From positions 12,588,001-12,652,000 of the forward strand of contig NW_024704743.1 of assembly GCF_018977255.1 (NCBI RefSeq): a stretch of 64,000 nucleotides of DNA, read 5' to 3'. This document shows positions 4,801 through 62,138 of this stretch, in pieces. Each line of letters starts with the position of its first letter. Position 1 is the stretch's first letter. Source of the stretch: Callorhinchus milii. Taxonomy: Eukaryota. The position numbers were made by a program, and so were the translations under genes. The notes under the pieces were generated by a model. That model did no database searches. It saw nothing but the letters and a program-made list of their open reading frames with translations, and was not told the DNA's origin.

Positions 4801-7800
4801 CCAGAGGAGTAAGTGGAGGGCCTGGAGATGAGGGCAACAATGCCACGATGGTTGGGACATGGGGCATGATGGAAGCTATAGCCAGGTCGCATGGTCTCAG
4901 TAGGGGGAAGGTGTCACCTGGCTGAACCAGGTTTCAGTGAGAGCAAGCATGTTGACGTTTTCGTCAACAATGAGTTTGTGGACAGTGAGGGCTTTATTAG
5001 ATAGGAGGTGGACATTTTGAAGGGCAATGCTGTGGGGACAGTTTACGGGATGGGGGGCGGTGGGAGGAAGCAGGATTGACAGGAGGGGTGGGAACGCGAA
5101 TCATGGCTACACCAAAGCCAGAGAGGGGAAGAGATAATGGACTGGATGGGAAAGGGGGGGAAGAAGATTGGGATAATAACAGAGGTAAAAACTGTACTTA
5201 GCCTATGTTTATTTGAAAAATGCCTTGTGGAAGTGACTTAATGTGGCGAGTTCCGACCGTTGGTTCAGGTGGGAGATTTTAAAAATGACGTCTCCGCACC
5301 TAGAACAACCGCTCGCGCCAGTCACTGCCCGCTCATTCGCTATTCCTGTGGCCTTACTGCTCGCTGTTCCCGTCTTCGTTTGCCGCTCACTGCTCGTGTC
5401 TGCACGAGGCGGCAGAGAGAGCCCTGTCGGTACCCGCTGGCCTCACTTCAGCCGCAGCGTGCTGATCTCACTTGTGCCCTTACTCCGTTCTCCTGTTAAA
5501 ATCCTGCGCTCGCCCGCTGGCCTCGAGCCAAGTCTTGCAACGCTTGCAGCAAGTCCTGGTCTCCTGTTGAGTAACAACTCAGATTTGATTGATCTTTTGT
5601 TGCCTCCAAGTTGTTTCCAAGTTAATTAGTGAAAACTGCATTATTGGTACATTTAGTTTGATCATTCTCTGAAACACTATCCTGCATGAAGAGCGCTATG
5701 TAAGTGTGTGCGTATATATATTTATAGTTATACTTTTTTAAAAAAAGTATGTTTTTCATAATCGTGATATTCATTGTAATTGATATAATGCTTCATATTG
5801 AGAAGATATCTCAAAAGCACTTCACAGGATTTACTGTAACGTGAAGTGACTGACTGTGTATTTTGGAGGTGTACTGGAAGCCAATTTTTGTACAGCCATA
5901 TAGTGAATGACCAGTTTTATTTGGGGGATTATTCACCAGGAAACCAGGATAAACTCCTTTCTCTTTGAGTAGTGCCGTGGAATCGTTTAACATCCTACTG
6001 AAGAGGCATTTAATTCGAAGGATGGCAAATCCAACAATGTAGTGCTTGCATTGGGGTGTCAGCCTAGTCCTTGTCAGTTCAGGGCAATATAAAACCTTTA
6101 ATGAAGCCTTTAAAAAGCTGCTGAGTTATCCACTGACTCTTCCAGGACTGCCAATCAGAGTGGAAATGCTTCCTGCTAGTGATCTTGAAAAAATTATCAA
6201 AATTTCCTGGTTGCTGTGTAGATTATCTTTCTTATGTCTTGGCTTTGAGAGGCTGAAAAATAGTCATTGGAGTTTCCTTCCAACCAAACAGAAGGCAGTT
6301 CTTACAAAGTAGTTTCCAATCCCACAATTCAGGGTGAGACTCATGATGACCAGACAATAAACACAATTAATGGTCGATCATTGTTTTAAATTGCAGAAAT
6401 GTTGAAATAGTCTCTATTAAGAGATGAACCTTGCATTTTTATGATATCTTATCACTTTGAAAAGTCTTGAGGTGCTTTACAGGAAATTACTGTCAAGTGT
6501 ACTTTTACGTATTGGCATTTGTGTTGGACCGCAAACAACCAAGTGGTAAATAACAAATTAACCTAGCGGAAGGTGCGATGGGATCCTTAACATCCACTTG
6601 AAGAACAAATGGAAACTTGGTTCGCCGATAGCCCTACAAAATACAGTAAATCATGCATAGTGCTTTAAGGTATCGTCCTGACATGGAAGGTCTTATATGA
6701 TAATAATATCTATTAATATTTTATCTGAAAATGGCAAGCCACCATTACTGTGGTGAAGTGTCAGCCCAGACAATGAGATACTGTAGACAGATTTATTTAT
6801 AATTGTAGCTCATTTTAAAGATAAATCCTAGATATGGAATGTCTATGATAGTGTATGATATTGGAAATGACGGAATGTTATACTTCAGCTGCTGAAGGTA
6901 TAAATATTGTGATTTGTATCATTTTGTTGATGACTGAAATTGTCCAATATCCCTGCAGGCATTCTTCCTCCTCACTATGAATCCCACTCTGTTGTGATGG
7001 GGTTTCGGGAAGAGCAGTACCAAGACTTGCTGCAAGCATTGCAAGTTATTCGCTTTATTCGTGATTCCACCCAACAGATTTGGATTTACCTCCGAATGTT
7101 CCAGTTAGAGTCGGGAATTCTACCGCGACGCCCAACCCAGCTGGTCAGTAATGTTTTAAACAGCAAAAGGTTGTATCGTGGTAATTTTGATTTGATTGGA
7201 TTGTGTCAGGTTTTTGTCTTTCACTTGTTTAATAGTTTAATAGATTACAATCCTGGATTTCTTTCACAATTCACAGGAACTAATTTGGGTATTACCTTTA
7301 CTCCCATCACCTAAATTCACAGGTGCTTCTCTTTCCTTTGCTTTAGTGGTTAGTGTAAATAGTTGGGATTATAGTATAAGAATCACTATTATTGACCACG
7401 AAGTGAATAGATGAATTAAGTAGAATGAATTAAAGAAATAAAAACTGTCATGTGACACACACACACAGTCCTAGTAAAGAGGTACCGAGCTAGGAGGAGA
7501 TCACTGGAATGCGATCCATGGCCAGGGAAGATAAGGATAGCTGGATCTAGAGGATGGATGGTAGGCCATCTGCGCTTACAAGGGCATGTGACTTACGGGC
7601 AAGAGAGATAGGAACCTGGGATAATTGGACCAGGAGAATGGATGGGATACAAACTAGTGATTAAAACTGAGAAAAAACTTAAGTGAACGGGTCACATGGA
7701 CAGAGTTAGAAAGAAGGATTGAAACTTCAGGGACATGGAGTCAGGTGGTTTGGTCAGGCTAGATAAGATGGAATAGGAGGAGTATGGTTCTTTTACAGAA

Positions 7801-10800
7801 GCTACCCTAGCTGGTGCAAGGAGAAACAACTTGAAGATAGGGAAAGAATGCCTGGGAAAGTGCAGAGAGCGGGAAAGAAGTCATGAAAAAAAAAAGTTAG
7901 AACACAGATGGCCAAACTAGTTTTTTTAGAGGAGCCTCGGAAGAGCCTCTGAGGAGTCTTCTGGAGAGCCTCTGGGGAGCCTCTGAGGAGAGAAAGGGGA
8001 CAAAGTCTAGCTCTCGCTGGAGTGCACTGCAAAGAGGACAAGTTCAGCCTTGCCGGAGTGGACCATCCAGAGACGTTTGCAGCTAGAAGCAAGCCAGAGA
8101 TGTTTGCATCCAGCAGCAAGCCAGAGACAATGTTTAACTTTTGTGCCAGCCTTAGAACTTTGTCACGACTTCCTGCCTGCTTGGTAATATCTCTCCTACT
8201 TACTAAAACACATACCCAATATACATACCAACAGTTAGACATTATTTAGGCACATTTCATATATCACATAATGTTTTTTTATATATGTTCAGAATTTTAG
8301 TATTGAGTGTATTATTAAGATGATGATAATAATAATCCTTGCATTTGATATAGCGCTTTTCATGTCTTCTAGACGTCTCAAAGCGTTTCACAGAATATGC
8401 TGTAAAGTGAATTGACTGTATATTTGTGGGCGAAACGCGGCAGCCAATTGCGCACAGCAATGTCCCACAGACAGTCGTGGATTGAAAATGATCAATTTAT
8501 TATTTTTTTGGGGGGAGAGTTTAGTACTTTAGTAGTCATTTAAGCATGACAGGTAATGATAATGCGTCGGGTGTAATGTGATGCTTATGCTTGTGTGGTT
8601 TTATAATTGCTAATAAAACGTTTAATAATATCCTTGGTGTGGTTTCTGACAAATGCTTGAACCCAATTTCACAAATTTGGTGACCACGAAGGGACTGACA
8701 AGTGTCTTGGTCATAAGACTAAGAGCCAATATAGCAATATTGTCTGTCCGAACAAAAGGGACCTCAAGTGTTTGACTGAATCATACTCAAGTCACATATA
8801 TATTCACACAAACAATAAGTGAAGGAGATGGGGAATAAGACTAACAAGAGTTAGGAAAAAAAGGGCCAACTATGTTAGACATCTATATTGATAAAATAGG
8901 GAAACAAGTACTGCATGCGGGTTAGAAGGGTTCTATGAGAACATGGAGAATCATGCAAGTCCACTAGAAGGAGCTGTTGATTGGCCTGATGAAATGTCAG
9001 GGTTGGGTGTCACAACAATTCGCTCACAAAAGCAAGCCGAGCGAGTGTTGCGATACGCGATTTACTGTGCCATGGTCATTAATAAACAGAGCAGATACCA
9101 GGAATATGGAATTAGCAAAGGTAATTAGGGAGTCCCTCAAACAGTTAGAGGACCAAGAGGAGTATGTCTTGAACCAGATCAATGACCATCAAACTATGAA
9201 TTGTGAGCAGGCAAAGCAAATTTCCCATTTAACTGGCACCGTTAGCAGCAACATCTAATAGCCATGTCAGCATGGGTCAGAATGCATTTTCAAGTGCGAA
9301 ATGATTAATGGAACTCGAGGCTGCGTTTAAGGAAATTCAGCGCCAGTTAGAAGATGCAGGGGGAGCGTTAAGAGAGGAAATGGAGAAACAGACAAAAGGT
9401 AGATTTGGCCGCTGATCACATAGAATGTGCCAAACAAATAGCTGAATTACAGACAGCACTAGATCTTAAAAGGGCGTTGGTATCAGCTATCCAGATCGCG
9501 CCGGCTGCCACCGATCCAATGATCAAAACGGCACCCCGGAGCGATCAGATAGTCGAATCTTTGGCCCCAAGGGAGGAGGTAACAGTGGCAACTGCCCTGC
9601 TTCTCGAGACCGAACCCATGAATGAGCCTGCTAAGGTAACCCCCCCCCCCAGCCAAAACCAAGGAACCGTAGAGTTCAGGTAGCCATCCTGAGCAAAACT
9701 TCACCCCAACTGCAACCCCCCTGCCATACTCCCCTTCTAAACCCTGCACAGTTCAATCTACCCTCAACCTCAACACCCAGATATTCTGATCTAGTGTCAC
9801 CTCGCTTTGTACTGGTTTCGGCTGAGATAGGAGGTTGACGGGCACGATCTCTGTTCTCTCGCTCTACCGTTTCCGAAGCCTCATCACACCCAGAATCGCA
9901 AAGGCGATACACCCTGACACCGCTTCCCCGTCAAAGAAAGAGCAGTGGTAATAGTCCGATTCCTACTCCACGAGTTCCGCTTTGCCAGACGACACCTTTA
10001 TCAGCCACAGACTGCAGCACTCTGGTGAAAGAGATAGGGACAATTTCCCCAGGAAAGCATCCCTCGACTTTCAGACGAGAGTGGACTGCTTTTGTGCAGA
10101 GACAGCCCGAGCTGGACAGTTTTGAGCAGGTTAGGGTAAAAGTCATTGACCCTAAATTACAGGAAAGGCTCCATACAGATCTGTTTAAAATGGGAACAAG
10201 TGCAGTGTATGTGAGTGAGCAAATAGAATAGGCATTAGGGATTAATCAAATTGACACTGATTAGGAATTCGTTAATGCTGTACAGGATTTAAGAGAGCAC
10301 CTGACCGCATTCGATAGGCAACTCTCCGCGCTTTTCGCGCTGTCCCAGGTAAACGGTATCCATGCTGATCCCCACAGGCAGGTCATGTTAAACAAAAATT
10401 CTTGACAAAACTCCACCCAAAAGTCCAGGCTAAATAAACTAGGGATGCTAGTGACACCTGAGGATTATTGAAACAAGCTTTTCGCAATGGTAGTTAAAGC
10501 ATGGGAAGGTGTCAGAAGCCTTCAGACCAGGTACCACGATCGGAGGGGGGAAAGGAGGTATGCTATGTAGAAGGGCCAAAACCAGGTATAATGACCCGGG
10601 ACGAAAGCAGGGTAGAAAGCCAGGGGAAAGCAGAGCTAATGTGCCTTACAGTACCGGCAGAAATCCAAGCAACTCACCCTGTCATGTTTGTGGTGACTGG
10701 GCATTGGGCGCAGACCTGCCCTCAGAAGTGCAACAGCAGTAATGCTCCACCCCAAAGGGAGGGACCTAAAGCATCAGCAGCCAGTCCCACCTGTGAGGAC

Positions 10801-13800
10801 TTTGTGAACTGGTCAAAACAATTTCAAAGGGGACTGGGTACTGACCAATCGGCTAGTAATGCTGATAACAGCAATGGTCCAGCCCACAGTAGAGACAAGT
10901 AACACAGCAAAGACAAGTAGATGTGATAAAGTCTGTCTCACCCATGTGTCCCATAGCAGGGATTTACATTCCAAAATCCAACCCCCCCCCCCCCCCCCCC
11001 CCCACTATGGCCAATTGACGGTTCCCGGCCTTCCCACTAACTTCCCCCAAACTATGTCTATCATTTGAACCTGTATTAGGAGCCAGACCTTATGTTAAAC
11101 TGGTGGTGAATAGAGGCCCATCGCAACTTATGTTAATTGACACCGGATCTGACGCTACTATAATACACTCTGACACTCCGACTGAAAATTTGCATGCTAC
11201 GAACGAATGTATGGAATTGTGTGGGTTTGACGGGAGCGCTGTGTTATCGGTCCAATTGACACATGTTAAACTAACCTTCCCGGTGGAAAGTGGGTGGTGT
11301 ACGTTAGACGTACTGAGTGCGTCAGTGACCAACATGATCCAGAAGAGAGGGATATTGGGAGCAGATGCTCTTTTAAAATATGCGGTGACAGTTGATTTTT
11401 CAAATCAATGCCTGTGGATAGGGGATCCCACTGGAGGTGGGGAGATCGCATATCCATAATGGGTTGATGACTGTCATGCGGTATTTGCAATTAAAAAGGG
11501 TGAAAGTTACCCCCCCATACAGTTCCCAGATAATATAGTGGCAAAAATCTTTGCTGGCCAACCCTCAGTGGTGTCTCTCCACAAGTATGAGTGTGAAAAG
11601 TTAGCTGCTACTGAGACCATTAACGGACCACCGAACAAACCCTGCAAGCAATATCCTATACCACGGGATAGCCACCCCTACGTAGCTGATACTATTAACT
11701 CGTTAAAGCAAAAGGGTGTCATTCGAAAAGGTACATTCACCACCATTCGCGTTCACATTTGATAACCAGCAATACACCTGGATGTGCATGCCCCAAGGGT
11801 TCCACAACACTCCGACTATCTTTCACAAATGAATGGCTGCTATTATTAAAGGGTGCATCAATTCTGAGTGTGTGTTTTAGTATGTGGATGATATTTTAAT
11901 TGCAACCACTGACTACGACACTTGAATTCAGACATACTGAACTGACTGGCTGAAGCAGGACTGAAAATGAACCCCAAGAAGGCTCAGCTACTACAAAAGA
12001 CTGTAACTTTTCTTGGAATACAACTGCCTCCTAGTGGCCGTATGCCAGATGATAAAAAGATCGAAATATTGTCCCGGCTGCCGCTCCCTAAAACAAAAAC
12101 AGCCCTGCGATCATTCTTGGGTCTGGAGGGATATCAAAGGTGGTCCATTCCATCCTTTGCTGAGCTCGCCAAACCGCTGTACAAATTGTTGAAAGGACAA
12201 GAGGACTCTGTGCTAGAATTTTGGACTGATGTTCACACTGCAGCTGTGGCTGCTTTAAAACAAGGAGTCGTACAAGCCACAGCTTTGATTTCTCCTTTTC
12301 ACCTGGAGGTAGGTGCGACTGACCAGAGCTGAACGACACCTGCTGGCCACATTCTGGGCCTTTACACATTTTACCTTTGTGACCAGTCTCCAGAAGGTGG
12401 TGCTACGTTCGCCGCACACTTCATTGACATTGTTGCTCAGCCCCGGAGATACTTCGGCGTCCTCTCAAAGACTGAACCGATGGGCCTTGGTACTGGGACA
12501 GCGGGACAACGAGATTACCTCACAACGAACAACACTTCTCCCTCATATGCTGCTATACGACGGAAACCCCCACGAGTGTCTAGCCCCACGCACCAAGTTT
12601 CAACATACATCCTTGAGCCTTACACCTCTTCCAGAGGGACAGCATGTGTATATCGATGGATCTTCCTTCCACGAAAAAGGACAGCCCCAGACAGGGTTTG
12701 CTGTCATCCTTCCACCAAACCAACAAATCATGTACCAATGCCAGCTGCACTCATCACAGTGTGCAGAACTAGCTGCCTTCCAGGAGGCTTTGAATCAAAC
12801 AGCAGACAAATCCACAAACATTTGGTCTGACAGCGCCTATGTGGTCAACACTGTCACTCTGTTACCTCTTCATCGGTCAAATTCCTTCCGGAAGACTGAT
12901 GGTAAACCATTTATACACCAGCCACTGTTGCAAACCATTTGGGAAATGCTCTCTGCTCGAAAGACTCCTTTGAACCTGGGAAAAGTTAAAGGACATTCAA
13001 AGATAGTGGCACCCCACACCCAGGGGAATTCTGATGCAGGCAAAGCTGCAAAGTTTGCGGCCACCCCTTTCCTCGGCCCTCCAGGTCGCATTGGTGGAAA
13101 AGGCTCCTTCTGCTTTGGACATTCAAACTTTACAGTCAACATACGAACCGTAATGTTGATGTGTTACAATGGCACAAAGAAGGCAAACCTTCTCCTCCAG
13201 CTGACTGTGACTGAGCCCCTTTGACTGTGACAACCCAGACAAATAAAGACTGTACTTCTGAACCAATTTTAATGTACTCGACCCCAGACATAAACCCAGT
13301 TGTGTGCATACCCCCAAGCCTGCAAGAGGAAGTATTCACAATATTTCACATGCACCCTATATCCGGTCACTATTCTGCAACCGTTACGACACAATTAATT
13401 TTGCCTTTGTGACCAGTCTCCAGAATTTTGTAGTATGTGGTAGCCAAATGTGGTAGAAGATATTGCGCAGCGCACCCACCGGTGTTTGGTATGTTTGCAG
13501 CATAATCCCCCTCCTCGAGGACAGTGAGTGTTCTTTAAATCGGCACCCCCACCCCATGGTCCATGGACCCATGTGCAGATTGATTTCATTGGTCTATTAC
13601 CAATGGCAAAAGGAGGTTTTAGGCACTGTCTTGTAATAGTAGACAAATTTACAAAATGGATTGAGGCTTTTCCCACTAGGATTAACACTGCGCTAACAGC
13701 AGCACGAATCCTCTTGTGCGAAGTGATCTGCAGGTGGGGAATACCTGTACAAGTGGACTCAGACCAAGGATCGCACTTTACAGGTCAAATTTTCTCAGAA

Positions 13801-16800
13801 ATGCAAATCATGCTGGGAATCAAACAGAAATTGCACATCTCACACCAACCCTAGTCTTCAGGAGTGGTGGAGCGGGGAAATCAGACCTTGAAGACATTGA
13901 TTAAGAAATTCCTTGCAGATCACCCCGCGCAGTGGCCTGAAATGTTGCCTAGGTGTTTGATGGCTTTGAGAAATGCCACTCACTCCACAATTGGTATTTC
14001 TCCCCATCAGGCTATGACAGGAGAGCCATGGTATCACCTGGTGAAGTGATATTTCTCAGGAAGACACCTATACAAACCAGTGCCTTAACTGAGAACTGGG
14101 TAATAAAAATGAGGGGTTGTATACAGGTTACTAATCAATTTGTTGCAACAAACATTAGACGATCCAAGGCAAACATGAAACAATGCTTTGACAAAAAAAT
14201 TAAACCAGCAGAGTACCAGATTGGTGATTCAGTAATGGTACTTGATTATGGGAAAAGGGAGCATCTATTCAGTCCCAAGTACAAAGGGCCTTTTCCCATC
14301 ATTGATAAAGCCAGCCCCTCAGTTTACTTACTACAATACCATAGCAAAACCAAGAAATATGTCCTTTGGCATCACATGAATCAGTTGAAAACTGTATAAT
14401 AACAGATATTACGCTTGTTCTGTCAAGAAGCACCATGGAATACCCAGATGGTGGCGAACAGTTTACAATGTTGGACAGCACCCTATATTATGGCTTTTAT
14501 CACAATTGTTCGTTATTGTTCAAATCGTAATACTCGTTGCATTGATAATTGCAGTAAGATGGGTTCATTCTCTTGTTCACGGTCTACAAGAACAGTCATC
14601 CCACTTGGATCTGGTCTTACTTATTAGAAGAAGATAATCCATGATAAAGCAAGATGTGTATTACTAACCAATTTTTGAAATATATTACTATTCAATTTTT
14701 TTTATGTGTGTTACTAACCAAAGTTTTTTTTTGAGAGATCAGAAACCTTAAGGTTCCTTCACTCTCAAGGTGGGGACTGTAAGTAGTTGGGATTATAGTA
14801 TAAGAATCATTAGTATTGATCATATTGTGAATAGATGAATTAAGTAGAATCAATTAAAGAAATAAAAACTGCCATGTGACACACACACACACACAGTCCT
14901 AGAAAGAGGTACCGAGCTAGGAGGAGTACACTGGAATGCGATCCATGGCCAGGGAAGATAAGGATAGCTGGATCTAGAGGATGGATGGTAGGCCATCTGC
15001 GCTTACAAGGGCATGTGACTTATAGGCAGGAGAGATAGGAACCTGGGATAATTGGACCAGGAGAATGGATGGGATACAAACTAGTAATTAAACAATGCTA
15101 TGATGCTGGATTTGTGTACATTTCACGGCATTAACACCGATTGAAATTTCGTTATTTTATAACAAATAAATCCTTGTATTTGAATTTGCGCTTTTTACAT
15201 CAAGGATTTACTGTAAACTATAGTGAATGTATTCAGAGTGAACAACTGGGCTATCCTGAAATATATATCCTGAACATTCATTTGACCAGGAAATTGATCG
15301 ACGGGATGACTGACGAGTGGTGCTCTTAGGAAAAATCTGCATGTAATATTTTTGAATGAGGGCCTGTGAACTACTTTTCATTTTAATGTTCACCCAAGTT
15401 ATTTGGTAAGAAGGAAACTTTCATTAGTATCAATTAAAAAAGACAAAAATGGCAATTTAAAATACCTTTTTTAGCCCAAAAAGAATGTAGCAAGAAAAAG
15501 TAGAACTTAATAGAGATATTCAGGTCAGGAGGACATCTCAAATTATTTCTCTGGGTACACTGTCAAGTGATTGTGTATGTTGTATGCAAACACTGACATA
15601 TGGGAACTACTTTGATTGTGATTTAACTGAAACCCCATGATAGAGTAGGATTCATACCAAGGAAAATTAATGGTGGACTTAAACAAAATGAAAGCTGTAA
15701 CAGGACGATTTAGTGTTGAAATATTATCGGTAAAGTATTCTTGTTGTATTCACCTTAGCTGCTGGTACTGTTTCATAGTGAGTGAAAGGTGGGGACTGTA
15801 AATAGTTGGGATTATAGTATAATCTAAATTCTAGCAATATAAAACTAATAATTCTAGCAATATGAAATTAATAGCCTGGATTCTATTGATGGAGAAACCA
15901 CATCTTGGTTGGGGTGGGAATGGGTTTTGTCAGTACAATTGGATGAAGTGGCATCTAATTTATTAAATAATCCAGTTATTTGGACTTGCTGGTTTTGTAT
16001 ACTACAGTGTGAATCGATCCCAATTGGTAGCACTCTAAAAGATTGTGTGTTCAAGCACCACATCTAGACTTTGAGCTCACGTCGAGGCTGAAACTTAAGT
16101 GCAGTGTTGGTGGTGAACTCCATTGATGCAGATGTGACCTTTTGGATGAGCCAACAACAAATTGGATTTATATAGCACTTTTCACTGAGGAGAACATCCC
16201 AAAGTGCTGGATAGTCAAGGGTTTGCACCTGAACTGAGGGTTGGAATCAAGTGACGGGGTGGAGGTGGGAGGTTGAGCTGAGGCACGAAGGATGCAAAGT
16301 TAAACAAAGCCTGTATATGGCGCTCTACAAAAGTGAAGGGAGTTACTGTGTCCTGACCAACAATCCCCCATATAAAATTATCCATGGCTGTTTGGGACAT
16401 TGCTGTGTGCAAGTTGGCTGATGTATTTGCCTTCAAAACCACTGCAGTTTATAGTATATCTTGTGCCAGCGCCTTGGGACGTCCTCCTGACGTGAAAGGC
16501 GCTTTATAAATGGAATCTTGTTGTTGTTGTTGAGATGTCTCTGCTGTATGAAAGGTGCTGTATCAAATATATGGATTATTTATTATGATCTCCTGTGATC
16601 TTTGTGTGATTTAAATCAGTTCATATTTTCACTAATCTTGTGACTATAAGACTTTTCATTTCATATATGGGATGGGCTGTTCACTTTTTTATTGTCTATC
16701 TGGTCCTCAATTGAATGAAGAGATAGGTGCAGTTTTCTTCCAAGCTACATTAGTACCTCTCATTGTTAGGTTACCAAGCGGCATCAAGGACTGTGAATTT

Positions 16801-19800
16801 CATTTTTCCTGTTTCCATCACTGGCGGCACTGCAACCTCTCTTTAGGATTGTACGTTTTAGCCTGGTTCAGATTAGGAACTGAGTGACAGTGGGACCCAA
16901 ATCTGTGCCTGTGGTCCTAGGTGTTAACACACCAATGCTCGATCCCTCCATGCTGTCCTCATAAGGGTTATTTGTAATACTGGTCCAATGAAAGTTGCCA
17001 GCTAAAATTGCTCTTTGTTTGTGCCAGGAACCGGAGGATAAAGTGTTTATTGCTATAGCAGAAGCAATGGAAGAGATGGTGGAAAATGATGTTGATGCCT
17101 ATTGGCTGGTCAAGTGCTTTGTAAACCAATTCAACACCAAATATGGAGATTCGGTGCCTCACTTGGTAAGCAATATGCTACTAAAAACATGTTAACATTG
17201 TATGGTTTCTGCAAGGGTCTACTATTACAGGCTAGCAGCACTGCTCTATTTGTTTGTGAGTCAGTTGTTCTGTACTCCAATTAATATGGTATATGCTGTT
17301 TTATCAGTGTACACTAGTTTGTCATCTCAATAACTAATAATCCCTGTTATACTTGCCATCCAGATCTGGTATTAAGAATGAGTTTGACCTGCTAGTTATA
17401 TAATGCTTTCTCAAATTTTTCAATTGGTTGAATTTCAAACCAGGAAGTTCTGGGTTTAATTTCTTAGCAAATCCACGCAATCCTTCACTCATTCAAGGTC
17501 ACTTGGAAACCTTTACAAAACGATGCTCCTGTTGGTAGGTAAGTGGAGTTTTCCCTGGGCTGAACTGACTCGATGGAGATGTGCCTAGCAAAGCCAGGTA
17601 GGCCTTGGCCCTCAGTAATCCAACAATAGCTTGTAGTATACATATGTCTTAAATCATGTAAGTGAAAGCTTGGTTCATTTCCTTTCTCTTGTTTCCTCCA
17701 CCCCTAAAGATGAGGAACAGGAAGATAAAATACAGCATGCTCTTTATTTGAGATCAGTTAACTTGATTTTCTGAACATTTTATCTAATTGGCAAGGATGT
17801 CAGCATTGGGAAGCAGGCACTTTCCCTGGGATCCCTTTGGTTGATGTAAGTGGAATCTGTTAACCTTAGATGATCATTTACATATATTGGGAGTCCTTCA
17901 AAATTATTTAAAATTGTTTGTGGACATGTTTACTGACCACGATTTAACCTTCAATATTACTTTCAAGTGATGTCTCTCTTATTCTTTCCAACCTGCCAAA
18001 TAGCCCAAGAGTCTTGAACATTATCTGAACCTGGAAGACAGCAAACTTCACACCCACTTGAAGAAATGCTCTGCCATGAATAAACTCCCTTATGACTTGT
18101 GGTTTAGGTGTTGCTTTGCAGGTTGTTTACCTGAATCCAGTCTTCAGAGGTAGGTAAGAGTTTGTCAAGTCAATAATTACAATATATAGAATTATTATCT
18201 TCATTGTATGAGCAGTTAATACTAACATTTTTGGTCTCTATTATATGGTAAGACTAGAGGTATCTTAGTTGCATGGTGTGATTTCAAGTATGCTTGTGTC
18301 TCATTCTTGGGGCTAGTTTTGAATGTCTCAATGTAGCATAGATTTGGGTATAATGGTCTACTGATGCATGAGAGCAAAGTTAGTGACACAGAGTTAGTGT
18401 GATTGAATTATCAGTGAAGCTGGTTAAAAACATGGAGTTGGGAGAAAATAGAATAATAGCAATAATCCTTGCATTTGAATATATAGAAGGGATAAGGAGA
18501 GAAAATCTGAGATGGAAATCATTAGTTACTGAGAGGTGTTAAAACTCATTGTGGTTGCGTATAATTACACGATCCATAAACTGCAACTTCCAGTGCTTGA
18601 TGGGTGCATTTTCACAAGAGGTCTCTGTGCACAGGATGTGCATGCATTTGTGCATTGCTCCATCTACAAGCAGCAAGGAAAACCTTGACATGATCAGTAT
18701 GCTTTACTGGTAAAATTAAGAAGTGATTTTAAGCAAAATTGAATATAGATACAAATTACAATTCTTCTTGATAGCAAGACACTTGAGGGATTGTAGACCA
18801 TCTTGGTTAAGGGATGAAAGTGCAGAGGGACTGAGCGTCCATAATGCCAAGGAGACTTTGGTGCCCAGAAAATCTGAAACTGTCCCAACAGTAAAAGGGA
18901 TCCGAGCAGTCACAGGTGTCAATGGGCAGAGACTGAGCAAAGGGAGAAACAGAATGGAATTGAAAAAAGTATGAATGAGTTTGATGGGACTCCAGGTCTG
19001 CTGATGTTCTGTCAGCTTGTCTGACAGACATCAGGGCCTGGATGAGTGCAAGTTTCCTGCAGCTGGATGTGGACAAGACGAAACCCATCCTTGGCTCCCG
19101 TCACACTCCTGCGGATCTGAACTCCTCAACCTCCCCGGGCTCTCCCTCAGACTCACCGAACCAGTGGCAATCTAGGTGTCGGATTCAACACCTACCTGTC
19201 CTTCCTTCCCCACATCCGGTGCCTGACCAGGACCGCCTTCCTCCACCTCTACCACATTGCCTGCCTCCGACCAAAACCTTTGTGCATGCGTTTATCACCT
19301 CCCTGTCACAATTATCCTATTCTTGCAGTCTGTAGTAATGAGAAAATAATATATATATATCAAACAGCTGGACCCGGGTTGTTTGATTGACAGTCACTTA
19401 ACAAGCAGCCCGCAGGGTAAAAGAACGCATGGACGCTAGCGCGGGAAAAAGTCCTCGCATTCGCATCATACGGTGGGCGGAACGAAAAGCCTATAAAAAG
19501 CAATGCTCGTGGTCGCTAGTTAATGGTCATCATCCGGTACGTACTGATGTGTACAGGACTACTGTACTGTCGGGTTGGTTTAAATCTATTTTACTAATGT
19601 AGTGTTGTGCTGCAAGTTGATATAGTTATGTGTGATAGTTATGTTTGATCTCATTGTTGTTTATCTTAAATTCTTGTATTCCTTACATGCAAGGTAGCCC
19701 AGGGTTGCTAGGTCTTAATAAACAGCTGTTGTTTTTAGCGAATGTTTCCTCGAGTCTCTGTAATATTCCAAAACAAGAAAAGGAGAAAACATTTCAGACA

Positions 19801-22800
19801 GTAGCTGTCGACACCAGAGTTTTGCTAGTGCGAGCAGACTCTGATTAGACAGTCCAGTTACCAGGCTTTGGAGTTAACTGGGAATACAGATCTGTGTGGG
19901 TGACTCTGACTTGGTTGAGTCATCTTTGAAACAGGAACTCACACTGACAGGGAGGGTTAGGAGAGAGTAGAGGCCACTTAGTACAAAAACGTTACTAAAA
20001 TTTGCAAGTACAAGGAGTGAGAACCATCGCACTTGGTGACAACGTGGGGCTCGAGGACATTGACGTAGAACTTCAGAATTTATTTCTACTGGAGTATAAG
20101 GATAAGATAATGGTAGATGCAGCAAGCGACCGGGACAAATTACTAACACGCAACATTCCACGTTCCGTGAAGCATACAGGGCGAACCCACCGAGAAACAC
20201 TTCCGATGGGGGAATGGCTATATGAACAAGGTGTAGCTACTACACACTCAGTAACTGAAGAGAATCGGGGTCATAGCGTGAGAAAACGTAATGAGTCTGA
20301 CCCAGGAATAGAATATTTGGAATATGGAGATTGGGATAGGCAGAGCCTCCGAACTGAAGGAATTGAAATGTTAGGATTGGCCCAAAGAGGTAATTCTGAC
20401 TACAGTAACAGAAGTAGAGAGGGAGTGAATGCTTTGTTGCAGCTGAGAGAGCTCATAAGGTTAACCGACCCAAATAAGAAAATCTAATTAAAACTGACCT
20501 CTACCCGAGTGAGCAGTACAGACAAAACTATACCTGACTCTTTACAGCCCATTATTGTGGTTCGAGAACGGGGATCACCGGCTAGCTCAGAGACAAGAAG
20601 ATCCTATGTGGAGGGTCCTTGGCGCACTGTGTGGGATATCAATAGAGAAAAAGTTTAGAGTTTGTATGAGGTACCGAGAGTACCAGCAGTGAAAGAGTGT
20701 GCGGGGATAGTTGTAGAGACCACATGGGAGGAGGCCACAAAGCAAAATTGGGAGGGATACCTCACAAAAGTACTCACTCAGTTCAAAGCCAGGGAAAAAG
20801 GGACCAGCGGAACATCTGATAATTGGTTCTGCTCCAAAATTAAAAGCAGACCTGTTTCTGTATTTAAATAATGGTGCAGACTATCTCCTAAAGGCGGAAA
20901 TGGGAGCAGCAATCTTCTCCTTGGCATCGGGGCTAACAGCAAGAATACATTTAACTCAGAAATATAGAGAAAGTGCAAAAAATGCAACACAGGTTTTTAA
21001 GCCACAGAAACAAATGCTTTCAGAAAAATATGAAAATAAAGTAACTGAAATAAATATAGCTTTGCAAGAAATGCAGGCTGAGGTGCTGAGTTTGTCTAAT
21101 CAACTTCTGCCAGTAGAAGAAATTATAGTCCAATTAAGGTTAGACGAGGCAGGGCAGCTGTACCAAATAACAGAATTAAAAGCACAGTTGAGATCTAAGG
21201 GCCTCGTAAACGAGAGACTGGGAGTTTTGATGGGCGCGAATTGCATGTGGCAAATGATAATGGCGTACAGCTGGAGAATCACTCATACACACCAAGTGTG
21301 CTAAGGCTTAAATCCTTGACAGGGACTATGCCTGAATTCAGAATAATTGAAAGCTGGTTGGATTCAGCGATATCGATAGAAAAGTTGGTAGTTTTAGAGA
21401 ATAAAACCGCCATGCAGATTTATTTGCAATCAATAGTTAACAAATGCTGGAGGGACCTGATCAACCCCGAGTGGGATAGTTTGATCATGGCACTTAGCGA
21501 AATTAAGTGAATGGTTGTACGAGAAAAAGGGCTTCCAGAGAAAATAGACCAGGTTATAGCACCCACCTGAGTGCTGAAAGCGCTCGCTTCTTTGGGGTTC
21601 AACATAAACCTTTAGAAAAGCCAGATAAGCAGATATAAAGTAGATTGGCCACACTGTCTCAGAAGATGGGGTAGGTTTTTAGGAGGGTTATCTAGATAGA
21701 ATTAGAAAACTTGTGACTTTTCAAAATAGGAAACCATTACAAGGAATTTGGGGGCAATGTTACATTATAATTAATTATGTAATCATGTGCTTAACTATTC
21801 TGTGCTGGTAAGACCTTTATATCAAAGGCTTACGAAGGCAGGGGAGATAGAAGGCAGTGTAGATCTTGACCACGTGCAGCCGGAGCTGGAGACTCTGTGA
21901 GATACCACTGGCACTTAGAGTCGTTGGTAAGGACTTATTGGTGTCGATACAAGTGGGGGTTGACTCCGCAATAGCCAGGGTCTGTGAAGAGGGGGAATCG
22001 ATTCCTCTAAAATACATTAGCTTCCAATTATCTCGAGCTGAAACCAAATTCAACTTTGAGGAAACAATCTCTCAGCTGCCACTACAATTTTAGCAAAAAT
22101 TAGAAATTTCGCACAGCATGCAAAGAAAATAAAAATTTCAACTGCATGCATCGGCATCAGATTGGCAATGCAGGGCAGAGGAAAAAGCCAAAAGGCTTCA
22201 AGGCCAAGGTGGGCTTTGTGGGAAGGGCTTTTATAAGACCCCATGGAAGAGTTTCACACTCGGTCAGAAGCAGATTTGGAGTTAGACAGCTTACTGTCTG
22301 AAAGCAGATCCCCATTGGAAGCGGTTCTTTGGGACCTGGTGGAAGGGTTAATGGTTTTATATTGCGATCTTCGCAGGATGTCAAAAGGGTGTTGGCTGGT
22401 GCTCGGATTGCTATCAGTAAATGGACGACAATGGGTTGGCAAGAGACGGAGAACTTCTTTATCCCCTGCAAAGGTATTTGAGTACAGGCTTCTGAGGTAA
22501 CTGCTTTGTTGGAGGCGCTTAAGCTCCTCCTGTTGGACGCAAACACGGATATTGTTAGTGATTCAGCCTATACGTGTCGAGCCTACATGGATGACTTAAC
22601 TAAATGGGCTATGGACAAACCATAAGGGAAAACCCTCAGTCCACAAGCAATATTGCTGACAGATTTGGGAGGAGAACAAACAGGGAGAAAAAACAGAAAC
22701 CTTTAATCCACGTTTGGCATATGATTGGACACCAAAAAGATAGAATGCAGTGTAGATCTTGACCACATGCAGCCGGAGCTAGAGACTCTTCGAGACGCCA

Positions 22801-25800
22801 TCTTGCAGGTCTCCCCTCCCGCTCCTTCTGCAATAGCTGCACAGACCTACTCACTTGTTCTGCATGCTACTTGAAACGAGCCACCACAGGCTGCCAAGAT
22901 ATCAGTGACAGGGGCAGTAAACTGTGATTTTACTACTGACCCTGAGTTAGTTAAGTTAGCGTCATTCCTGGAGTCGGGGCAAATGGACAAACTTCCTTTC
23001 TGGGCCAGAGGCAAAAAGGTTCTGGTGGAAAGATCGGAATTGTACTGGTGAAGGGAGACTTTAAACCAACTTATTCCACCTACACGAGTAAGGGGGTATT
23101 TAATTACAACTGCCCACGAGGACCTAGTAGTCTCCACAATGGAGTAAAAGGGACCAAGGAAATTCTAAGGGAATACTGGTGGTCCAATATCAAGAGGGAA
23201 GTTAAAACTACATGGTGGATTGCATGCGGTGCATTCGAATTAATCCAAACTCAGTGAAACGGAATACTCAAACCGAGTATGTTCAAATGGGATGCATCTG
23301 GGAGAGGGTTTACTTAGATCTTATCAGACCCTTGCCTAAAACAGCCAGAGGTAATCGCCATCTATTCATGTTCGTTGATTATATGACTCGATTTACTATA
23401 GCCTACCCCTCTAAGAGGTACATGGCTAAAACCATATTCCAGACAATAACAGAGCAGTTTATTCTCAGAAACAGGGTTATGAAAATTCTCGAGTCTGACC
23501 GTGGAAGCCATTTCACGGTGACATAATAAAGTTGGTGACCCATAATCTACATAATTTACAAGTGCCTTACCATCCAGGGGGTTCCGGAAAGATCAAGATC
23601 AAGATCATAAAAAAATGCTCTTAAAAAGACGTATATCCAGAGAGGATGCAGACCAGGGTTTTACCCCTCAGTGATAGACCAGGGTTTTACTCCTCAGTGA
23701 CAGACCAGGGTTTTACCTCTTCCACGGAAGACAAATGATTACCCTGCTTACACAGATGCCAACAGAAATCTCTACTTCGCAGCTGGAGAACTTTGAAGAG
23801 TCTTTAGCTGATATCGTAACTCAGCATAATACAGGTCACCATTATGAGAACACTTGTAACTACAAGCAAGGAGATTTGGTTACTTGGAAGATACATTACA
23901 GGTCTGGCACTTTACGAGAAAAATTCCACAAACCCAGTAAAATTGTGGAATTCCTAAAACGATAAAAATCCTCACTTCCAGTGGTAAACAAATAACAGTT
24001 TTGGTTGACCAGGTCAAATGAGTACAAGTTTATCAAACCATTCGAGTGTTGGGGAAATAATGGCGTGCGAGCCAACCCCTTTCTCCGGGTTCAGATATTG
24101 AGGGATGCGAGAATGCAGGAGCCATTCAAAAACTGGACTGTATAAACACCTGGAGGTGACAAGTTAAATGCAGTTGTCAAATGTTCAATGGGATCATCTG
24201 GAAAGGGTATTCTAAATTCTGGGATTGACCTAATGATTATCATCAAAATTGAGTTATAATGAGTGGCTCTGTTATACATGTGTTTTATAGTAATAACTGG
24301 CATAAATCTCAGAACAAGATACTGTGTGTAAGTTTCTGTCTTCTAGTTGACTTGAAGTGCATGCGGTTTACAGAGAGAGAACAGCAGCAGGCATCTGGAG
24401 AGCGATACGACAGAACAGAAAGTTTTGTGACAGACACTTTGTTGGACTTTTGAGTTCTTTCCTCCTACAGATTGATAACCAAGATATTATTTTCCGAACA
24501 TATTAATTATCGAGAGGGGGGAAATGTCATGGTTATCCTATTCTTGCAGTCCGTAGTAATGAGTAAATAATATATATATATATTGAATAACTATAATTAA
24601 GGGAAATGGGTAGGCCTTAGCAAACAGCATACATGAGGTACCCGAGTTGCAACAATGGAAAGGACCTGGGCTGTTTGATTGACAGTCAGTTAACAAGCAG
24701 CCCGCAGGGTAAAAGAACACATGGACGCTGGCGCGGAAAAAAGTCCTCGCATTCGCATCATATGGTGGGCGGAACCAAACGCCCACAAAAAGCATTGCTC
24801 GACTCTTCTCGTGGTCGCTAGTTAATGGTCATCATCCGGTATGTACTGACGTGTACAGGACTACTGTACTGTCGGGTTGGTTTAAATTATTGTACTAATG
24901 TAGTGTTGTGCTGCAAGTTGATATAGCTATGTGTGATAGTTATGTTTGATCTCATTGTTGTTTATCTTAAATTCTTGTATTCCTTACATGCAAGGTAGCC
25001 CAGGGTTGCTAGGTCTTAATAAAGAGCTGTTGTTTTTAGCGAATGTTTCCTCGAGTCTCTGTAATATTCTAAAACAGGAAAAGAAGTAAAAACTTCAGAG
25101 AGTAGCTGTCGACACTGGAGTTCTGCTAGTGCGAGCAGACACCGATTAGACAGTCCAGTTACAGGCATTGGAGTTAACTGGGAATACAGGTCTGTGTGGC
25201 TGACTCTGACTTGGTTGAGTCCCTTTGTATCCCCCCTGGATTACCTAAACGCACTCCTCGTCGGTCTCCCCAGCTCCATTATTCAAAAATCCAGCTCATT
25301 CAGAACTCTGCCGCCTGCATACTGACTTGGACCAAACTCTGTACCCCCATCTCACCAATTCTGACCAGGGTCCACTGGCTCCCCATCACCGAATGGATCG
25401 ACTTCAAGATCCTTACACACCTCCCTACCTCTCCGATTTTCTGATTCCCCAATCCACCACCTCTGCTGGACCGTCACTGGCCTCCTGCTTGTCCCTCACA
25501 CCCTCATTCAGCCACCATGTCCTAAAAGTCTGGAAAAACTCCCTTCATCCCTCCACCTTGCCCCCTCCCCCTGAAAACCTTCCTTTTCAACCATGCTTAC
25601 AGACATTCCCCACTTGCTCGGAATCAGTTTTCGCCACTGTTAATCGCTCTGAGACGTTACCCTGCGTGGACGGAGGCTAAATAAGTGTAAGTTGTTGTTG
25701 ACATAAACAAGATTAAGTGCACAAGTGTTCTTGTAATATTGATACAATCAAATGAATTCCAAATAAGATCATTGCTTTAATGGTTGCAAATGGTCCATAT

Positions 25801-39714: not shown

Positions 39715-62138
<22,424 letters not shown>

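Follow-up and report, generated by a model that had tools for sequence, protein, structure and literature searches.

A broken, envelope-deleted endogenous retrovirus in a TBC1D7 intron of Callorhinchus milii groups with CmiERV lineage I and probably descends from a virus with an F-like envelope

We analysed a 64,000-nucleotide stretch of the Callorhinchus milii genome (contig NW_024704743.1, positions 12,588,001 to 12,652,000; hereafter the window), in which positions 7355-15092 hold a dead endogenous retrovirus (ERV) with a deleted envelope gene (env) and with every gene broken. The element is inserted in sense orientation in an intron of TBC1D7. With a probability of roughly 0.8, its reverse transcriptase (RT), its RNase H and its integrase belong with CmiERV lineage I (clade Huo), and its ancestor likely carried an envelope resembling viral fusion (F) proteins, not a gamma-type one. 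The lineage itself has already been published, and the locus, a dead and env-less copy of it, adds little on its own; what makes it interesting is that its ancestor likely had an F-type envelope, of which only a remnant is visible here.

The element is ordered as long terminal repeat (LTR), primer binding site (PBS), gag, pro, pol, env remnant, polypurine tract (PPT) and LTR, all on the forward strand. As the first-pass annotation of this DNA had described, an RT (11640-12140, YVDD at 11881-11892) is followed by a tether, that is, a degenerate Gypsy-type RNase H (12210-12500; PF17917, 25.3 bits against a cut-off of 24.8), and by a second, retroviral-type RNase H (12643-13062; PF00075, E 6e-18). 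All the motifs quoted there were located: the tether strings at 12297-12329 and, in another frame, at 12328-12372, with RLNRWAL at 12469, and the second RNase H motifs DGSS, AEL, SDSAY, KGH and GN at 12655, 12763, 12826, 12988 and 13024, respectively. Part of the tether is deleted near 12331, and the tether of the element's family, when aligned to four rows of Gypsy RNase H, does not retain their acidic catalytic positions; we predict it to be catalytically dead. The best PDB matches of the second RNase H are the RTs of murine leukaemia virus (MLV) and xenotropic MLV-related virus, followed by foamy virus. The integrase (13350-14399) comprises the HHCC region, the core (rve, E 9e-16) and the C-terminal GPF/SH3 module already described for it (SH3_Tf2-1, E 3e-4; GPF at 14286), and is interrupted by stops and frameshifts. 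Compared with its sisters (L157, C23a), the RT lacks about 214 bp after position 11745 and has further smaller gaps and stops, and the 1047-residue Pol read-through carries 14 X marks. Contigs from public sequencing runs cross 11339-13187 and 13722-14813 without gaps, thus the Pol breaks in these intervals are genomic and not assembly errors; the same contigs cover the element and the adjacent intron alike and are uninformative about transcription.

A Ty3/Gypsy retrotransposon could be suspected from the GPF/SH3 tail of the integrase, from the high profile score that Ty3 Gag-Pol obtains and from the lack of a full env in the window copy, yet the second RNase H, the degenerate first one, the env remnant and the 100/99-100 support within the retrovirus clade leave that reading with practically no probability. 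A Ty3/Gypsy (Metaviridae) element is marked by a single, catalytically intact RNase H adjoining the RT, and this arrangement was not found. The earlier view that the element is of retrovirus type and not Gypsy is thus borne out by both its dual RNase H and its placement in the trees.

To place the element, the genome was searched with its tether-RNase H piece, which retrieved a close sister at 82% identity, one group at about 50% and a distant group at about 27%. A locus of the middle group (C15, 49%) matches the CmiERV scaffold 2 element of Han at the LTR start, PBS, RT and PPT, that is, with four of five probes, the fifth not being derived from C15. That scaffold 2 element is assigned to lineage I, and in the available part of Han 2015 (PMC4422223) this lineage forms a cluster with snakehead retrovirus (SnRV), a placement repeated in PMC4977317; clade Huo comprises SnRV-related ERVs and is present in all major vertebrate lineages according to the accessible portions of Xu et al. 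2018 (PMC6001957) and PMC8922424. The nearest named proteins are those of frog and coelacanth ERVs (41-51% identity), and SnRV-like ERVs are reported to be the main class in coelacanth (PMC4977317). The rows for the trees were hand-picked among the proteins retrieved: dual-RNase H elements were given preference, a few Gypsy outgroups were included and most Gypsy matches were left out. One tree reference was L040 (C2:91874000-91883999), an epsilon-like ERV of class I whose Pol frame is open over 1379 residues and whose env is gamma-type. The lokiretrovirus reference was the distant group of the genome search, whose Pol hardly differs from a lamprey protein and shares about 50% identity with teleost proteins. 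It is also anchored by a metagenome element (L066) with Pol inside the lokiretrovirus clade and with an env matching Fusion_gly (E 1e-5), and an env of that type is a lokiretrovirus mark in the accessible text of Wang and Han (PMC7947760).

In the RT tree (79 rows) the window row falls in a nine-row clade together with C15 and with C33, a sister of the lineage I complete copy (support 100/96). This clade is nested in a retrovirus clade of 39 rows (100/100) and stands apart from a 20-row lokiretrovirus clade (100/99). The window group holds at 95/95 in a mixture-model RT tree (35 rows), and an 82-row RT tree agrees with the grouping of the element and lineage I. Furthermore, the element groups with the lineage I clade in the RNase H tree (41 rows, 98/92), the integrase tree (43 rows, 99/98) and a concatenated tree (28 rows, 97/98). 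The approximately unbiased (AU) test rejects the joining of the window group to the lokiretroviruses both with the RT (p 9.7e-5) and with the concatenated data (p 1.7e-5).

These trees bear directly on the lokiretrovirus/NYNRIN-like label that the first-pass annotation had preferred. As a lokiretrovirus the element would be the first in a cartilaginous fish, and both the dual RNase H and the homology of its relatives' env to lokiretrovirus Env point that way. Against this, the RT, RNase H and integrase trees all separate it from the lokiretroviruses, as do the concatenated tree and both AU tests, its tether-RNase H is only about 27% identical to the lokiretrovirus copies versus 49% to lineage I, and the dual RNase H is common to all retroviruses (PMC7947760, accessible part), so that a tether plus a second RNase H is not diagnostic of lokiretroviruses. 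The database label “NYNRIN-like” is found on class I, lokiretrovirus and window-clade proteins alike and therefore carries no information; dual RNase H and this label together are insufficient to identify a lokiretrovirus. We reject the lokiretrovirus label and consider such an identity very improbable, provided that the reference clade, which includes a lamprey element and a carrier of an F-like env, is truly Lokiretrovirus.

The SnRV-like alternative, which had been named second, gains support through the clustering with lineage I, and the element is probably an SnRV-related ERV of clade Huo, the SnRV link resting on the published tree. Some points weigh against this placement. The link is borrowed from Han's tree by way of one locus; our trees hold no rows of SnRV, foamy viruses (spumaviruses), HERV-L/S, class II viruses or NYNRIN, so that the domain phylogeny proposed earlier as a check refuses the lokiretrovirus and the Gypsy placement and does not extend to these groups. 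In addition, the window RT row is only 126 residues long, and the deeper support joining the window group to the other putative Huo rows in the concatenated tree is weak (86/98). The element and its relatives might accordingly form a separate basal retrovirus lineage, loosely near SnRV, with Han's lineage I drawn to SnRV for want of closer references. SnRV is absent from the named relatives of the element's Pol and from the viral contigs searched, the nearest named proteins are the frog and coelacanth ERVs mentioned above, and the basal branches of the retrovirus clade lack resolution in the trees. Nevertheless, lineage I is placed with SnRV in both published accounts, the Gag coiled coil and single knuckle match those of SnRV, and SnRV-like ERVs are reported to dominate in coelacanth, the host of several of the top matches; a separate basal lineage is distinctly unlikely.

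The second part of our conclusion concerns env. At about 14435-14634, overlooked in the first annotation, lies a remnant consisting of the membrane-proximal stretch, the transmembrane anchor and the tail of a putative F-like envelope, the rest of env being deleted. It matches the C-terminal end of the L054 env, which belongs to a sister lineage primed by tRNA-Arg, with 44% identity (E 5e-7) and the C30 copies with 82% DNA identity. The deletion junction between integrase and remnant is common to five of the seven close copies, C6 and C30 retaining about 700 more env bases; most of env was therefore presumably lost once, and the env-less form went on spreading. The L054 env, with stops read as X, has a signal-like start, an immunoglobulin (Ig) domain, a basic cleavage site and a membrane subunit of about 450 residues; the Ig domain reaches 21.9 bits with Pfam ig in the related L057 (cut-off 21.8). 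The L054 env is collinear with two lokiretrovirus envs (local z 7.5 and 6.6, the score being reached by none of 300 composition-preserving shuffles), in contrast to z of -0.5 and -1.1 with two gamma-type envs. Likewise, the longer env piece of the window's own subfamily gave z 4.7 against lokiretrovirus env (0 of 300 shuffles) versus -0.3 against gamma-type env. The language-model neighbours of the region after the cleavage site are the Baculo_F (0.95) and Fusion_gly (0.93) clusters. On these sequence and language-model features the envelope is likely F-like. The earlier proposal that sister envelopes be compared with paramyxovirus and pneumovirus fusion proteins is thus weakly answered in the positive, the relatives having a putatively F-like env; as a discriminator of lineages the comparison fails, because env type and enzyme lineage disagree.

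Several results weigh against an F-like ancestral envelope. The language-model match has a recognition score too low to be trusted by the tool's own standard, and no usable match was obtained in the language-model atlas for a second piece of env. The L054 env matches no Pfam family, including no direct match to PF00523; its profile-profile comparison with lokiretrovirus env gave a probability of 0.2%, both alignments being very shallow; an env homologue search yielded none among 7198 candidates; and the env alignment, used as a profile against the PDB, returned no match. A sister env was modelled twice with AlphaFold; with predicted local distance difference test (pLDDT) values of 47 and 33 both models are unusable, and Foldseek with the pLDDT 47 model returned noise, in which a shark paramyxovirus F at rank 13 (E 0.025) was not counted. 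Moreover, the Ig domain is found in sister subfamilies only, the env pieces of the window's subfamily having no N-terminus. Helical and cysteine-rich segments might have converged and so account for the similarity to lokiretrovirus env, or the env might be nearer to that of foamy viruses, although a foamy-like env would itself still count as F-type. The element would in that case be an SnRV-like ERV of the ordinary sort whose env is unclassified; the identity of about 18-24% and the missing confirmation by Pfam, profile or fold are compatible with this. However, the features run in the same order, from the N-terminal strand through the basic cleavage site and the long helices to a shared L-x-x-G/S-x-L/I-P-S motif, the spacing of cysteines and the anchor. 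Moreover, none of the shuffles, which preserve local composition, attains the score, and the gamma-type controls stay at background. We therefore regard convergence as rather unlikely and keep to an F-like ancestral envelope.

The closest relatives of the element do not share one env type. The env of C33 is gamma-type (TLV_coat, E 8e-12), and within one Pol clade of one genome a gamma-type env in C33 and C15 (L025 8268-9389, L027 8505-9263) occurs beside an Ig-bearing, F-like env in C23b (L054 776-2922) and its relatives. Two primer tRNAs occur within the same Pol clade as these two unrelated env types. With two env types in one Pol clade, envelopes have likely been swapped within it. An AU test on the F-env lineages as one clade gave p 0.25, and no direction of the swap follows from it. 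An F-like Env combined with a Pol that falls among the sampled retroviruses, with a gamma-type Env on a sister diverged by about 50%, favours an F-type ancestor and later replacement. Tentatively, and at somewhat less than even odds, the clade beside SnRV might have kept an Ig-capped F-type env while its sister, lineage I, swapped to a gamma-type one; the F-type would then be the ancestral retroviral Env, shared by lokiretroviruses, foamy viruses and this clade, and the gamma-type a later replacement, visible in progress within a single genome. The open full-text literature, with subscription papers and bioRxiv supplements beyond reach, yielded no account of an env that is F-type or carries an Ig domain, either in the SnRV clade or in ERVs of sharks; this covers the accessible portions of PMC11468914, PMC12583693, PMC13709493, PMC11521997, PMC12193657 and bioRxiv 2023.10.26.564294.

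The following history would fit the element. According to established retrovirus biology, tRNA-Arg would have primed the minus strand and the PPT the plus strand, the tether would have been structural and the second RNase H would have done the cutting. An enveloped ancestor presumably entered the germ line; one copy may then have lost most of env, and the env-less form may have spread by intracellular retrotransposition or with help in trans. The window copy would subsequently have decayed through the RT deletion, stops, a short interspersed element (SINE) insertion and removal of the greater part of the 3' LTR; it would now be inert. With less certainty, the ancestral Env might have been a class I fusogen of the lokiretrovirus and paramyxovirus F design, an N-terminal Ig domain might have been present on Env of the ancestral type in at least one sister subfamily, and envelopes might have been exchanged within the clade.

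The 5' LTR (TG...CA, 7355-8673) is about 1.1 kb long without an inserted SINE and aligns with the 3' LTR over 310 columns; sister 3' LTRs match it as far as 8673-8674. The SINE-like host repeat (approximately 8312-8521, repeat family D6, strand not assigned) was inserted after integration, because it is absent from the sister LTRs, whose matches jump from 8312 to 8522. In 17 of 18 bases the PBS (8678-8695) corresponds to a host tRNA-Arg(TCG) gene, at its 3' end plus CCA, which agrees with the tRNA-Arg priming proposed before; a two-variant Arg PBS pattern has 14 exact matches genome-wide, and a control pattern none. The PPT (14768-14778), identical in the sisters, lies directly 5' of the 3' LTR (14779-15092), which is truncated after only 314 bp; no target-site duplication is readable at the element. 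The two LTRs differ at 16 of 310 columns (Kimura two-parameter distance 0.054), corresponding to about 12 million years at a mammalian rate or about 120 million years at Han's assumed shark rate, a span too uncertain to use. Some 700 bp 3' of the truncated LTR, a 37-bp copy of the PPT-LTR junction (15786-15822) is followed by a short duplicated sequence and is probably a leftover of the rearrangement that truncated the LTR. The LTR family is abundant in the genome: a query with 7355-7700 gave at least 41 matches at 82-93% identity, the query excluded, with 40 of 103 candidates scored, and LTR matches far outnumber copies retaining internal sequence. The Arg-primed, env-deleted subfamily is not among Han's three sequences as searched with PBS probes, from which a PDF line break could hide one.

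The broken gag (approximately 8828-10920) was read as a three-frame translation, with a heptad or coiled-coil N-terminal region at about 9305-9500. Of the Gag features named in the first-pass annotation, the heptad helices stand (the quoted string lies at 9414-9482), with heptad a/d positions 50-60% hydrophobic versus about 25% background (best of seven phases, no shuffle control). The terminal CCHC knuckle is single but not intact, being split by a frameshift at 10680-10719 and matching no Pfam family in the window copy; zf-CCHC was matched in both sister Gags scanned, in one with E 3e-6 and in the other below the cut-off. The aspartyl protease (DTG, 11085-11420) is assigned by motifs, its match to Pfam RVP (E 0.009) lying below the cut-off.

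The TBC1D7 exon 5' of the element (6958-7143, forward strand) was recognised by a PDB match to human TBC1D7 (E 2e-20), a motif scan and exon-sized public-run contigs, and further exons lie at about 17030 (start near 17027), 18100, 26810 and 28785. A second LTR element at 19370-25227, also in sense orientation and more decayed, lies in a later TBC1D7 intron, so that the two elements do occupy different introns of one gene, as had been claimed. It has an RNase H (E 1e-4), and the eight significant PDB matches of its integrase all belong to the foamy-virus integrase group (three labelled PFV); it is probably foamy-like, and its PBS presumably resembles tRNA-Lys. Convergent with TBC1D7, the minus strand at 39730-62200 carries 3' exons of an RPEL-repeat gene, which we take to be PHACTR1 from its motifs; this gene was rejected as the host of the element, its stop lying near 39730.

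Compared with known systems, the element is closest to CmiERV lineage I, with which it shares a clade in the three domain trees (RT, RNase H and integrase) and in the concatenated one, an identity of 49% in the tether-RNase H and of 60% in the integrase, the PPT core, a coiled-coil Gag with one knuckle and the dual RNase H. The lineage I complete copy differs in having a gamma-type env and a different PBS, presumably tRNA-Ser-like, whereas in the element's subfamily the PBS is for tRNA-Arg, the LTR is unrelated and the env remnant is F-like. A tRNA-Arg primer has also been attributed to SnRV; lineage I uses another primer. The N-terminal coiled coil and single zinc finger of SnRV Gag (PMC2717909, available part) have counterparts in the element, the knuckle being frameshifted in the window copy. 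The accessory open reading frames and 136-residue Env tail given for SnRV in the accessible part of PMC12193657 differ from the element, in which no accessory frames and no long Env tail were seen, the comparison being made with the description of SnRV and not with its sequence.

Lokiretroviruses share the tether and second RNase H with the element and have an F-like Env collinear with that of its relatives; unlike the element, their enzymes form a clade sister to the sampled retroviruses, and the lokiretrovirus envs scanned show no N-terminal Ig domain, which the element's sister envs carry. In the available portion of the Wang and Han supplement (PMC7947760) lokiretroviruses are found in none of the three chondrichthyan genomes listed. 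In the present assembly true lokiretroviruses, of which some keep long open frames, are confined to the small contigs C548, C466, C909, C364, C771, C556 and C1182 (L037-L039, L162, L163), with eight long DNA matches on these seven contigs and none on large ones. Over 1524 residues, the Gag-Pol of C548 shares 99.5% identity with a protein of the lamprey Lethenteron reissneri. These copies are likely lamprey contamination of the assembly, or may represent a very recent transfer, and could yield false findings of “shark lokiretroviruses”. Foamy viruses (clade Tu), finally, resemble the element's relatives in envelope design, foamy Env being F-related (PMC11468914, accessible part), and differ in Gag, which has no zinc finger in foamy viruses (PMC1224870, accessible part) and a zinc knuckle in the element's family; the family profile also scores higher with the RT of MLV (492 bits) than with that of foamy virus (415 bits).

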